A stretch of DNA of 23,710 nucleotides, from the IMG/VR virus record IMGVR_UViG_2851949629_000009, positions 1-23,710 of that record; one strand, written 5' to 3'. Source of the stretch: a virus (lineage: Duplodnaviria > Heunggongvirae > Uroviricota > Caudoviricetes). The first letter of the stretch is position 1; every line of letters begins with the position of its first letter. Position numbers: made by a program. Positions 9,001-15,000 of this stretch are shown in pieces.

Positions 9001-12000
9001 AGCCGGGGATTTTTTCTTTGTGATTCCATCCAATGCATACTTAAAAGCCCTGCTAATCGGACTGATGTCTGATGCCATTCCAAAAGCACACAATACCGAA
9101 GCAATAAATCTCCAGTCCGTTCTGCTTATCTTCGATTCATGACAGCCAATCATCTTTGCCAGACCGCGCTGGGTAATAGCTGACAGATTGATAAGTAAAT
9201 CTGTTTCTGCGCGATCAACGTCACGCTGTGATAGTTTGCTGTAACTTGTTCTTTCCATTTCTTACTATTTCCATAGGTAAATAATCACTAATACTCATCT
9301 TTCGATGAGTGCTTAATTAGTTACCGCGTTGTCGGCGGTGCAGATTGATAAAGAGCGGTGTTACTTATGCAGCCAGAAGGTTCTTTTTACTTATTTCAAG
9401 CATTTCGCTTGCTTGATATTTGCCACCAGAAATCTCTTCGATTTTTGAGGCGTATTTCGTTTTCCCAAAAAACTCAGTCTTAGGGAGGAAGCCGTTTTTG
9501 AGCCACTTATAGACAGCCCTTTCGCTAACTCCACAAGCCTTCGCAACTTCAGGTATGCCGACACCTTTAATCGGCTCATCAAGATTTTGCATAGGAATAT
9601 CCTTTTTCGTACTTTCAGTACGCATTATGATTGAACTGAAAGTTTTTGCAAGTGCTTTAGTATCGTACTCATGGTTCAGAATGAAAAAGTGCGCAAAGAA
9701 TTCGCCCAGCGGCTAGCGCAAGCCTGTAAAGAAGCTGGTCTTGATGAACATGGTAGGGGAATGGCTATAGCCCGTGCCCTTTCTCTTTCGTCCAAAGGCG
9801 TTAGCAAATGGTTTAATGCTGAGTCTTTACCGCGTCAGGAAAAAATGAATGCGCTTGCGAAATTTCTAAACGTTGATGTTGTTTGGCTTCAGCACGGCAC
9901 TTCGTTAAATGGAGCGAATGATGAAGATACTCTTTCATTTGTTGGCAAATTAAAAAAAGGGTTAGTGCGCGTGGTTGGTGAGGCAATTCTTGGTGTTGAT
10001 GGTGCCATCGAGATGACCGAAGAACGCGATGGGTGGCTCAAGATTTATAGCGATGATCCAGATGCCTTTGGTCTTCGTGTGAAAGGAGACAGCATGTGGC
10101 CCAGAATAAAATCAGGAGAATATGTACTCATTGAGCCTAACACCAAAGTATTCCCGGGTGATGAGGTGTTTGTCAGAACCATCGAAGGACACAACATGAT
10201 CAAGATTCTTGGCTATGACAGAGATGGAGAATACCAATTTACAAGCATCAACCAGGACCACAGACCAATAACGTTGCCTTATCATCAAGTAGCAAAGGTG
10301 GAGTATGTGGCTGGTATTCTGAAGCAATCTCGCCATCTGGATGACATCGAGGCAAGGGAGTGGCTGAGAAATTATTAATACCAATAGCATAGAGACGAAA
10401 ATGCGACAGGTTTTAGGTACAAATCATAACCCTATCCACAAACAACGTTGTAAATATACACATAAGACTATTGTAAAAAAAGCTCTATCCCAGTAAATGC
10501 GGTTGCAAAATGGGTTGATCGAGCATATATAAGGAGTATAGTTAGTGACCCAAGATGAAACGAATGAATATCTGAAAACCTTAGCATTGGTTCCAAGTGC
10601 AGAGGCCTCCGCAGAGGAGAAGCAGATATATAGCGTCAAAAAGGCTGTAATCGGTCTGATTGAATTTGTTACAACCAGTCTTGAAGAGCTTGGAATTGAA
10701 GGGTTGCATGAGTTAACAAACCCATCTCTTGACGAATTAGATGCAGAGCTAGAGAAACTTGACCAAAAAGCTGATGCAATCAATGAACTAAACTTAAAGC
10801 AAATCATCATATTTGCACAGATTTTAATCAAAAACATAAGAGAAAAGAATCCTGATTTGTGCTCTGAGGGATCAAAACTACTCAAGAGTGCTAAATCGGG
10901 TCTTTGACACTTACAGAGCGGAGGATAAACATGTCTAGAACTGAACATATCAAAGATATGCTTAAAAGTGCGGATCGAATCAATCAGATTATTGCTGAAA
11001 TGAAGCAGAGAAAAGCAGAAATGCTAGCATCAAAGCTTCCAATGGCAGCATAACCAAAAACACCCGCTTCGGCGGGTTTTCTTATTCCCCTAAAAAGATC
11101 AAACAACTCCACATTAGCTTTTTTGTGCCCACAGTTTTCTACCTAGCAGTTTTCTTTGCCTCCCGATCCACCATCTAAAAACACATAACCAATTGTATTT
11201 ATTGAAAAATAAATAGATACAACTTGCTAAACCACGCAATTCTGATCCCTGCCGCATAACCTTCATCCGCAACATTTACAAAAATAAATTTCCTTATATA
11301 TCAAAATCATATTTCGTAGAGTTAATAAATCATAAACGATTCGTACCAATAGTTCTTGATAATATCGAACTACTGGTTCGTTATTATCGCCATCAGCAGG
11401 ACGTTGGAAGCCAAACGGAACAGATTGGCGGGCTCTTTAACTTCGATGGGGCGCTGACAAAGCGCAAACAGATACCAAACGAGATGGGTTTGGCGGTGTG
11501 GTGAAGGGTTCATGGACGGGAATATGTCGCACGTAAAGCGGCGAGGCCTGCGGGACTATTGCCGAATTGAAGTAGGCCGAAACAGGTCGAAATGGGTCTC
11601 CCACCTACCTGTAAGCGTCAACGGAGCACCGTATTGACGCTTATTTATTAGTGAGTACTACGTTCCATGGCAGGAGTTCGTCAACTCGGTTGGAAGGCCA
11701 TTCCGGCAGTACGCTCAGGATATGGCGCAGATACGCTTCCGGATCGATACCATTCAACCGGCAGGTGCCGATCAGCCCGTACAACAGTGCACCACGCTCG
11801 CCGCCGTGATCGCTACCGAAGAACACGTAATTTTTCTTTCCGAGACAGACTGCACGAAGCGCTCTTTCCGCTGTGTTATTGTCCGCCTCCGCCAGACCGT
11901 CATCACAGAAGTTGCACAACGCAACCCAGTGCTTCCTGATATACCGGAACGCATCTCTCAGACGGCATTTTTTCGATAACGTGTGTTCTTTCTCCTGCAT

Positions 12001-15000
12001 CAGCTTATACAGGGAAGTCAGTAGCGGTTTACTCTGCATTTGCCTGACCGCCAGGCGTTCAGACACCGGCAACCCGCGTATTTCGTGCTCAATGGCGTAC
12101 AGTTCGCCGATTAGTTTCAGTGCTTCTTCCGCCGTCGCGCTTTTGGTACTGATATATACATCGTGGATTTTGCGCCGCGCATGAGCCCAGCATCCTGCTT
12201 CCGTCAACGCGCCGCCTTCACGTTCGGCACTGAACAGCCGATCGTAACCTGCGAACGCATCTGCCTGCAGGATACCCCGGAAGGGACGAAGGTGTTGCTC
12301 CGGATGTTTACCCTGATGGTCCGGTGAGTAGGCGAACCAGACCGCCGGAGGTTCTGGCGAACCGGCATTTCGGTCATCCCGGACATACGTCCAGATATAT
12401 CCTGTTTTCGCCTTCTTCCTGCCCGGTGCCAGTACTTTTACTGGTGTGTCATCAGTGTGAACCTTGCGGGTGTTCATCACATAACTGTACAGGGCATCAT
12501 TCACCGGTGTCATTAACTGGCAGCACGCATCAACCCAGTTGGAGAGTAAGGCACGGCTCAGTTCGACACCCTGGCGGGCAAAGATTTCACTCTGACGATA
12601 CAGTGGCAGGTGTTCGCAGTATTTTCCCGTTAACACGCGGGCAAGTAACCCCGGGCCCGCGATACCACGCTCTATCGGACGGGATGGTGCCGGTGCTTCA
12701 ACGATGCAGTCACATTTTGTACAGGCTTTTTTTACCCGTTCTGTGCGGATCACTTTCAGGGCGCTGCTCACCAGCTCCAGTTGTTCTGCGCTGACTTCCC
12801 CCAGATAATCCAGCTCACCGCCACACTCCGGGCAACAGCTTTCTTCAGGCTCCAGGCGGTATATTTCACGGGGGAGATGTGCCGGTAACGGACGACGATG
12901 GCGCGACTGTCGCAACTGGCGGGGAACCAGCGGGTCATCCTCACGCCCACTGTAACGATCGCTTTCCTGCTCGCGTTGTTTCAGCAGGACTTCAGCCTGT
13001 TCAACCTCACTACGCAGTTTTTCAGAACGGGTTCCGAACAGCATCCGGCGCAGTTTTTCTATCTGAGCCCGCAGATGCTCTATTTCTCGCTCATCTTCTT
13101 CGATCTTTTCTTCGGCACGTGCCAGTGCAGAGCGCAGGAAGGCCTCCGTCTCTTCAACCAGACTCAGTTGCTGGTCTTTCTGACGGAGGGCTTCAGCCTG
13201 CTCAGAGAGCAGCCTTTCCAGCTCAGCGATGCGAATGAGGTATTTCTGACCCATGGCCGTTTTTATAATCCGGCCCGGCGTTTTTTACAACATTGTCAGT
13301 GCGTTAAGGCGGGATGTTTTTGGCTGACGCCAGTCCAGCTTATCGAGGAGCATTGCCAGTTGCGAGCGGGTAATGGATATCTTACCGTCATGCACCGCAG
13401 GCCAGATAAACTGACCTTCCTCAAGGCGTTTGGTGAACAGGCACAGACCATCAGCATCAGCCCACAGGATTTTAATCGTGTCTCCCCGTCGGCCACGGAA
13501 GATAAACAGGTGACCGGAGAAGGGGTTATCATCCAGCACATGCTGTATCTGCTCCCCCAGACCGTTGAAGGATTTACGCATATCAGTAACGCCGGCAACG
13601 AGCCAGATACGGGTACCTGATGGGAGTGAAATCATCGTCCCCTCCCGGTCAGCTCACGGATCAACACCGTGAGCAGCTCTGGTGAAGGATTTTCCAGCAT
13701 CATTTTACCGTAATGGAATTCCACATGGCAGGAAGCTGCACAAGCAACTGATAATGCCTCCGGAGCAGGAGCATCTGTAGCACAGCGCGGGGTGTCGATA
13801 AGTTCCACTGGAACCAGAGTCGGAGAGGCCGGAAAAGATTGTGATACTGTAGGGCCTACAATAGTTGGAGGCATTCTACGAGAAATACGTCCTTCTCTTT
13901 GCCAGAGGCGTAGCCATTTAAAAATCAGGTTGTTATCAACGCCATGTTCCCGGGCCAGTTGTGCAACATTGGCATTTGGTTTCGAAGCCAGTTCAACCAT
14001 ATGAAGTTTAAATTCATTAGAAAATATCCGGCGGGTTCCGGAGCGCCAGTCTGTAGGTTTATCCATCAATAGAACTCCGTCTAATTTAGAAGGAGCTCTA
14101 ATTTAGTCTGCAAGGAGCAGGTGTTACAGACGGCATTGGCTTTACGCTTACACCTACCTCACCACCAAAGCCATTTTACATGAGGAAAACATCATGACGG
14201 TAATCGTGTACGGGAAATCAACATTTACAGGAAATGCCAAAACTCGCCGTCATGAGCGGCGCAGAAAGCTGGCTATCGAGCGTGATGCTATATGCAACAT
14301 CATCGATTCGATCTTCGGTACAGACAGTGATGAACCTGTTCAGAAAGAACCGAGAAAGCGTTTAAGCCTTTCTGAAAAAGCAATATCACTCGGCAACATT
14401 CGTAACCAAAATACCGACGAATGCAATGGAAGCATTTGCCTGCCAAACGTAGCCATCTACGTGGCAGGCTATCGGAAATCAAAACAACTGACGGCGAGGT
14501 AATTATGGATATTTCATGTATTGAACAATTACTAATTGAGAAAACGAAAGAAATGCTTGATGTATTGGACAAAAAAAATATCTGAGTTAAAAGATACACC
14601 CGCGACACAACTTATTCTCGAACGTAGTCGAAATAAATTCTTAGAGTTAAGCCCTGACGTTCAAAATATAGCATCTAAACTGCTGGCTACGTTGATTGAG
14701 AGGAATGCATTGTTATCGATGTCATCAGATGAACGAAAAAAACTGACGAACGAAGATGTTGCAACCATCCGCCAGGCATTCGAAATTTTGTTCTCTTAAT
14801 TACTTACTGTTTATTCTGATAATCTCATCAAGAATTTTTTCATAAACAACTGTGCTTGGCTTTCCGTCAATGCCAGGGGCAAGATTACCGGCTCTGATAA
14901 GCTCAACAATAATCTGTTGAGCGGCTTCGTGTGGGTTGGTTTTGGGATTAACAATATCTGTCATAACAAAGCCCTTCTTTTGACTGTGGAAACAACAGTC

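Follow-up and report, generated by a model that had tools for sequence, protein, structure and literature searches.

How does a prophage express its N antiterminator once an insertion sequence (IS) has landed between the nutL site and the N gene, and is such an insertion a regulatory device or a step in the decay of the prophage? The question is raised by the IMG/VR record IMGVR_UViG_2851949629_000009, a stretch of 23,710 nt which we analysed as a whole and call the window, and which comes from Escherichia coli strain 214-4 (chromosome NZ_CP025840.1, prophage at torT/torS). The original prediction, made from the letters of the window, had placed an IS66-family element with a perfect 8-bp target duplication between nutL and the N gene and had taken it for a simple and relatively recent transposition. 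The placement is confirmed to the base, as the element between the two copies of the 8-mer ACCTACCT comprises exactly 2541 bp by direct reading (11611-14151, minus strand), starting with GTAAGCGTC at 11611 and finishing with ACGCTTAC at 14151. The reading as a recent transposition is borne out by the exactness of the duplication and by a relative in which the site is still empty. The event is a simple, evolutionarily recent transposition of ISEc43 into the untranslated leader of the pL operon between nutL and N, where 34 nt separate the insertion point from the start codon of N and the left end of the IS is 42 nt from this codon (Table 1).

The identity of the element follows from its ends, its genes and its copies elsewhere. 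Both ends open with GTAAGCGT, so that the inverted repeats start with the GTAAGCG expected of ISEc43 and the IS66 family, and the two tips match at 8 of 8 positions and the first 27 positions at 17. The genes tnpA, tnpB and tnpC follow one another, with tnpC coding for an IS66-type DDE transposase, and all three open reading frames (ORFs) are intact; tnpA is read here as 145 amino acids (aa) from a TTG and by PGAP as 144 aa from the next ATG. RefSeq/PGAP names the transposase 'IS66-like element ISEc43 family transposase', and the naming of the whole element is based on its identity of 99.5-99.9% over 2541 bp to copies that PGAP annotates as ISEc43. Hundreds of other genomes match only positions 512-3052 of our query, which correspond to 11611-14151 of the window, and the ends of the IS are therefore fixed independently of the 8-mers. 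In addition, we extracted four copies from other strains, all of them 2541 bp long with tips identical to those of the window copy and each flanked by its own perfect 8-bp duplication (GAACAATT, TCATTACC, GGTAGCCA and AAATAAGT). Tested against these other genomic copies, the 8-mers of the window thus prove to stand at the true ends of the IS, one of the points on which the original prediction had seen itself open to correction. An 8-bp direct repeat has also been reported for ISEc43 (PMC6531882). Comparing the five ISEc43 duplications we found no consensus that would speak for a preferred target sequence. The window copy is 2-3 nt apart from copies in the same strain and in another strain, and by all these features it is assigned to ISEc43, a known and annotated IS.

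The state before the insertion can be seen in a near-identical prophage. The 8-mer ACCTACCT stands on both flanks of the IS (11603-11610 and 14152-14159), and the two strands of the 23.7-kb window contain no further occurrence of it, as befits the 8-bp target-site duplication of an IS66 element. The empty site, CCACCTACCTCACCACC, was found verbatim in contig IMGVR_UViG_2619619134_000015, and the predicted 30-mer GGGTCTCCCACCTACCTCACCACCAAAGCC has one exact match in the whole of IMG/VR, located in this same contig, which thus carries the sequence that had been predicted for an uninterrupted relative with a single copy of the 8-mer. The contig aligns with the window at 8544-11610 (98.9%) and 14151-15113 (99.9%), the two alignments sharing the 8-mer and one fortuitous base, and the N proteins of the two are 100% identical. 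A single ACCTACCA also stands at this position in the prophages of strains B2.3 and CU37RT-2, which are more distant relatives at about 95% identity. Among 5426 complete E. coli genomes the insertion is present in one, when a query coverage of at least 80% is demanded. An IS misplaced by the assembly among more than 20 near-identical copies was considered as an alternative, and the genome does contain many near-identical repeats of 2.5 kb; a perfect duplication of an 8-mer that is single in the empty-site relative is the mark of a real transposition and not of a mis-join, and the window copy moreover has two private substitutions, so that we regard an artefact as extremely improbable. Inversion or composite-transposon behaviour of the two inverted IS66-family elements present in the window was considered as well and rejected, as the gene order is colinear with the empty-site contig over both aligned segments and the duplication around ISEc43 is intact.

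Table 1: Positions in the window of the insertion, the N module around it and the second IS of the prophage.
Feature	Position	Strand	Details
ISEc23 (IS66 family, 2534 bp, annotated)	283-2816	+	no target duplication; occupies the place of the deleted late region
nutR downstream of cro	9323-9357	-	boxA CGCTCTTTATC, boxB ACCGCCGACAACGCGGT; position as nutR annotated in P22
Presumptive pL	11356-11384	+	-35 TTGATA 11356-11361, 17-nt spacer, -10 CGTTAT 11379-11384
nutL, P22 type	11432-11465	+	boxA GCTCTTTAAC 11432-11441; boxB hairpin GCGCT-GACAA-AGCGC 11451-11465
Upstream part of long leader hairpin	11481-11610	+	5' arm GAGATGGGTTTGGCGGTGTGGTGA 11481-11504, apical region, upper 3' arm ending CCCACCTACCT 11600-11610
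Left target-site duplication copy	11603-11610	.	ACCTACCT; sequence reading; one copy at the empty site
ISEc43 (IS66 family), 2541 bp	11611-14151	-	right inverted repeat from 11611 (GTAAGCGTCAACGG...); left inverted repeat up to 14151 (...GGCTTTACGCTTAC)
tnpC, DDE transposase, 537 aa, intact	11641-13254	-	NF033517 E 4.5e-134; PF03050, PF13817, PF13007, PF13005 (zf-IS66, LZ, C-terminal domains)
tnpB accessory protein, 116 aa	13285-13635	-	NF033819 E 6.5e-35; PF05717 E 3.1e-36
tnpA accessory helix-turn-helix protein	13632-14069	-	NF047595 E 1e-18; PF01527 E 1.9e-10
Right target-site duplication copy	14152-14159	.	ACCTACCT; sequence reading
N-proximal leader	14160-14196	+	lower 3' arm CACCACCAAAGCCATTTT 14160-14177; small hairpin CATGA-GGAAAACA-TCATG 14179-14196
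N antiterminator, 102 aa, intact, P22 gene-24 type	14194-14502	+	PF25694 N_peptide E 2.8e-38, full length; phrog_271 E 4.3e-39

The module into which ISEc43 inserted is an N/nut module of the P22 type. N is 65% identical to gp24 of phage P22 (E 2e-46) and conserves the arginine-rich RNA-binding motif GNAKTRRHERRRKLAIERD at its N-terminus. RefSeq lists the gene as 'hypothetical protein' (WP_032266375.1), and close relatives are labelled variously as 'regulator', 'hypothetical protein' or 'transcriptional antitermination N peptide', so that a gain of this work for annotation is the naming of the 'hypothetical protein' at 14194-14502 as a P22-type N antiterminator. A search of PDB sequences with N for the solved complex of the P22 N peptide with boxB gave no meaningful match, the peptide probably being too short for phmmer. 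Both pL and cro are followed by a boxA and a boxB, which form nutL and nutR, respectively. The nutL motif GCTCTTTAAC...GCGCTGACAAAGCGC has a single match in the window and none in 100 shuffles, it is identical to the nutL annotated in P22, and its boxB hairpin is predicted in every fold. A search for a nutR that shares the boxB of nutL was negative, the nutR of the window having the other P22-type boxB. The interval between boxB and the ATG, measured in 79 viral contigs with a relative of this N, is 118/119 nt (n=70), 156 nt (n=2), 179 nt (n=2), 297 nt (n=3) or 324 nt (n=2), and none of these loci has an interval of the size of an IS. In the window it is 2728 nt, the sum of 179, 2541 and 8, and N is no longer what it is in an ordinary module, the first gene of the pL operon at a short distance after nutL, made without antitermination. 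The P22-type N/nut module of the window is thus best described, from its motifs and homologues, as a disrupted member of its family and not as a different family, with antitermination activity being predicted. In the 297- and 324-nt leaders (L015, L024, L047, L049 and L053) the interval between the long leader hairpin and N contains one more hairpin and a small ORF that starts ATGCTGGAAATTATCACC..., and some relatives therefore have an additional small gene upstream of N.

The IS has also split an RNA structure. We folded the reconstructed empty leader of the window together with 32 unique leaders from the 79 loci (within the range L011-L090), and all 32 fold alike into the boxB hairpin, a long hairpin and a small hairpin (CATGA-GGAAAACA-TCATG, in the window at 14179-14196), which encloses the Shine-Dalgarno sequence and the start codon of N. 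The base of the long hairpin, which lies between boxB and the ribosome-binding site of N, is conserved, with GAGATGGGTTTGG paired with CCAAAGCCATTTC, and its upper stem falls into five unrelated sequence classes, each of them self-complementary, in leaders with boxB-to-ATG distances of 118/119, 156, 179, 297 and 324 nt; the mean duplex energy of the upper arms is -13.8 kcal/mol for arms of the same class versus -8.1 for arms of different classes. The P22 leader (L094, 4660-4830, minus strand) belongs to the 156-nt class. As the z-score of the whole-leader fold is an unremarkable -1.34, the case for this predicted hairpin comes from its conservation across sequence classes and not from its stability. 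An Rfam search with the empty-site leader and the whole window returned matches at chance level and two tRNAs, and no described RNA family covers the leader. In phage lambda a hairpin between nutL and the ribosome-binding site of N is cut by RNase III and modulates the translation of N. The P22-type hairpin resembles it in its position, from boxB to the Shine-Dalgarno sequence of N, and in its long imperfect shape, but shares no sequence similarity with it, and a cleavage by RNase III and an effect on translation are suggested by analogy. ISEc43 sits inside the 3' arm and has put 2.6 kb between the 5' arm (11481-11504) and the lower 3' arm (14160-14177), and with the arms separated whatever control of processing or translation the hairpin gives would be lost. 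Beyond this locus, a hairpin of conserved structure and mosaic sequence in P22-type N leaders may be of wider use for studies of N regulation.

The original prediction had the pL transcript crossing the whole IS, antisense to its genes, in order to reach N, and this geometry is confirmed. After SOS derepression, RNA polymerase starting from pL would pass nutL and then produce 2.5 kb of untranslated antisense-IS RNA before N. Long untranslated RNA with C-rich, G-poor stretches has the features associated with the loading of Rho. On the pL-sense strand of the IS, C exceeds G in windows at 11741-11975, 12755-12870 and 12950-13100, and strong polarity is expected because the 2.5-kb stretch is untranslated and has these C-rich, G-poor windows. 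Rho-dependent polarity together with convergent transcription of the IS genes would then greatly, but not absolutely, reduce the initial, N-independent synthesis of N, and less N would mean a weaker N-dependent delayed-early expression of the recombination genes, xis and int on the left and of O, P, the nin genes and Q on the right. From what is generally known of Rho on untranslated RNA, a reduction of N expression through polarity is the most likely effect of the insertion. Polymerase modified by N could still read through the element, and the synthesis of N would therefore be reduced or delayed and not necessarily abolished. Terminator-like sites on the plus strand inside the IS are weak and, with 7 found versus 3.9 +/- 2.2 expected, no more frequent than by chance.

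The polarity would be bypassed if the IS brought a promoter of its own, internal or formed as a hybrid at its left end, which transcribes N constitutively and independently of pL and cI. The left end of the IS, at 42 nt from the N start codon, would be well placed for this, and a weak promoter-like site (TAAACA-18-TATCAT, 9/12) is present at 13503-13532 on the plus strand. However, the promoter-like sites of the region, three found versus 4.0 +/- 2.1 by chance, do not exceed the random expectation, the scan detected no -35/-10 pair on the plus strand in the 600 nt before N, nor did the IS show a convincing promoter, be it outward or internal, and when 14040-14193 was read by eye the -35 candidates TTGGCT and TTTACG in the IS end had no acceptable -10 at 16-18 nt. 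Furthermore, such a transcript would lack a nut site, and N would find nothing to act on in cis. We therefore hold a promoter borne by the IS to be very unlikely.

A second change lies in the promoter itself. We place pL, presumptively, where pL/OL is annotated in P22 upstream of nutL, and an OL1-like palindrome (CGAAC-TACTG-GTTCG, 11366-11380) overlaps it. In 17 other promoter variants from 33 loci, the empty-site twin included, the -10 hexamer is invariably CATTAT and the bases after it vary, and the A-to-G change at its second position (G at 11380) is found in the window only. The second position of the -10 hexamer is the most critical base for the formation of the open complex. Thus, the change is a probable promoter-down change with a weaker pL as its predicted result, and since the same G also perfects the overlapping palindrome, this pL may be repressed more tightly as well.

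The third change concerns the prophage as a whole, which extends in the window from fragments adjoining torT to the integrase adjoining torS. Its early region is kept with int, xis, a recombination and anti-RecBCD block, ral, N, a cI-like S24 repressor, cro, cII, O, P, ren, the nin genes, Q, tRNA-Asn and tRNA-Thr, and after tRNA-Thr follow ISEc23 and then short pseudogene fragments of the tail-fibre-assembly type. The annotation between torT and torS has no lysis (holin, lysozyme), terminase, portal, head or tail genes, so that downstream of Q the complement of a complete prophage is missing and the element is a remnant of about 24 kb. In the prophage of strain SCU-171, which occupies the same torS site and whose Q and tRNAs are 99.9% identical to those of the window, tRNA-Thr is directly followed by more than 20 kb with holin, lysozyme, lysis protein, terminase, portal, head, tail and baseplate genes. 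In calling the insertion in the N leader a second IS66 copy, the original prediction had treated the two elements as one IS, which does not hold. At 283-2816 stands ISEc23, which shares about 90% identity with ISEc43 over 2128 nt and diverges from it at the tnpA end, and it has no duplication, the 8-mers at its ends (GCTGATAT and GGTTAACG) being unrelated. An IS without a duplication in the place of the late region looks like the signature of an IS-adjacent deletion. ISEc23 directly abuts tRNA-Thr (flanks 1-282 and 2817-2965), which is annotated with 74 nt here and 76 nt in the relative, and the deletion may also have clipped the 3' end of this tRNA. The 214-4 remnant resembles the cryptic remnants DLP12, Rac and Qin of E. 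coli K-12, which are likewise partial lambdoid prophages that have undergone deletions and IS insertions and kept some regulatory and recombination genes. It differs from them in that its early region (int, xis, N, cI, cro, cII, O, P, nin and Q) appears to be complete and the late half alone is lost.

Judged by this gene content, the prophage is unable to form particles, whatever the state of its N leader. The loss of inducibility is independent of the insertion of ISEc43 because the late region has been replaced by ISEc23, and the expectation of the original prediction that the insertion impairs induction becomes moot, as a remnant devoid of late genes has lost inducibility irrespective of ISEc43. 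The same holds for its suggestion of a selectable switch, in which the IS leaves the site without a trace, the leader becomes whole again and the prophage is reactivated. With a perfect 8-bp duplication on its flanks the IS could, formally, excise in this way. Yet precise excision of insertion sequences is very rare, a restored leader could not restore a phage that misses all lysis and structural genes and whose pL is altered in its -10 as well, and there is no evidence of heterogeneity at the site. Two other copies of ISEc43 in 214-4, moreover, have no matching flanks and speak for rearrangement instead of clean excision. A reversible switch is therefore unsupported, and there is next to no probability left for it.

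With the insertion of a known IS, the replacement of the late region and the change in pL taken together, we consider a progressive silencing of a decaying prophage, neutral or mildly advantageous, and not a regulatory device, to be probable. Several points weigh against this reading. The polarity across ISEc43 is argued from general knowledge of Rho, and the weak and chance-level terminator-like sites on the plus strand would make substantial read-through possible. As nutL lies upstream of the IS, any N that is made could antiterminate through it and partly restore expression, and the weak site at 13503-13532 is a potential source of N mRNA. The -10 of pL is assigned from conservation, and the three lesions, ISEc43, the loss of the late region and the pL change, may have arisen in any order.

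Some of these points would fit a different reading, in which the insertion has made the synthesis of N dependent on N itself, so that a trickle of read-through supplies N, N antiterminates through the IS and the pL operon becomes thresholded or bistable. Both nutL, upstream of the IS, and N are intact, and inside the IS there are no strong intrinsic terminators on the plus strand. From the classical genetics of lambda and gal it is also known that unmodified polymerase is stopped by an IS that lies in its transcription unit and that polymerase modified at a nut site by N overrides this polarity and reads through. In the classical cases, however, N is made upstream of the IS, whereas here the IS lies between nut and N and N is downstream of the block. 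Furthermore, there is no sign of selection, the insertion being confined to one strain in which this IS has spread in a burst, the prophage lacks the late genes that the circuit could govern, and its pL carries a probable down-mutation. We thus consider a rewiring by positive feedback unlikely, and it is more doubtful still that such an N-autocatalytic, thresholded pL circuit would gate the recombination, anti-RecBCD and excision genes of the remnant during SOS. The silencing of a decaying prophage remains our preferred reading.

We describe here no new kind of switch but the ordinary case of a known IS inserting into a prophage in decay, and the type of event is already known. Other insertions of ISEc43, in ORF S023 of SGI1-B-Ec1 (PMC6531882) and in ydcK and xdhC of other E. 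coli, show the same element, the same termini and the same 8-bp repeat of a simple insertion, but they disrupt coding sequences, whereas the target in 214-4 is the non-coding leader between nutL and N of a prophage. In the Stx2a lambdoid prophages of E. coli O157:H7, insertion sequences such as IS629 have been described as the main source of variation among near-identical prophages, and their position is expected to change the regulation of induction (PMC4587872). These insertions differ from the one described here in that IS629 belongs to the IS3 family, the prophages keep their late genes and are mostly inducible, and none of the insertions was reported between nutL and N. The torT/torS prophage of 214-4 is thus a non-inducible remnant with at least three independent lesions, and its ISEc43 is one of about 20 insertions of this element in the strain, now documented to the base and of little importance beyond bookkeeping.

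The abundance of the element is a property of the host. Strain 214-4 is an archetype of heat-stable-toxin, CS6-positive enterotoxigenic E. coli (ETEC) from Mexico and serves as an ETEC challenge strain; the prophage is not discussed in its genome paper. A search of 214-4 with the diverged left end of ISEc43 (13740-14151) gives 19 matches on the chromosome and 3 on the plasmid, and these 22 ISEc43-like places are the highest count per genome among the 5426 complete E. coli genomes, which indicates an expansion of ISEc43 in this ETEC strain. Two sister copies, on plasmid p214_4_132 (L092, 103394-105934) and on the chromosome (L093, 685334-687874), each differ from the window copy at 2 of 2541 nt, the two substitutions being private to the window copy, and the TnpC of the window copy has one private amino acid difference (position 251) to those of two other copies in the strain. 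Unlike the window copy, the sister copies are flanked by mismatched 8-mers (TAACAAAA/TGTTGATG and TATATGAC/ACAAAAGC), which therefore point to recombination or deletion between IS copies elsewhere in the genome. One of the sister copies is part of a different prophage, where truncated antA/antB-type and helix-turn-helix genes flank it.

A minor observation concerns the interval between the repressor gene and pL, in which two ORFs overlap on opposite strands, one at 10424-10948 (minus strand, 174 aa) for which we found no match, and one at 10545-10907 (plus strand, 120 aa) which is annotated by RefSeq and has a weak PHROG match (phrog_16322, 1.7e-06). The pair looks like a moron-type cargo gene with no assigned function, and a bidirectional terminator-like hairpin is found at 11062-11077.

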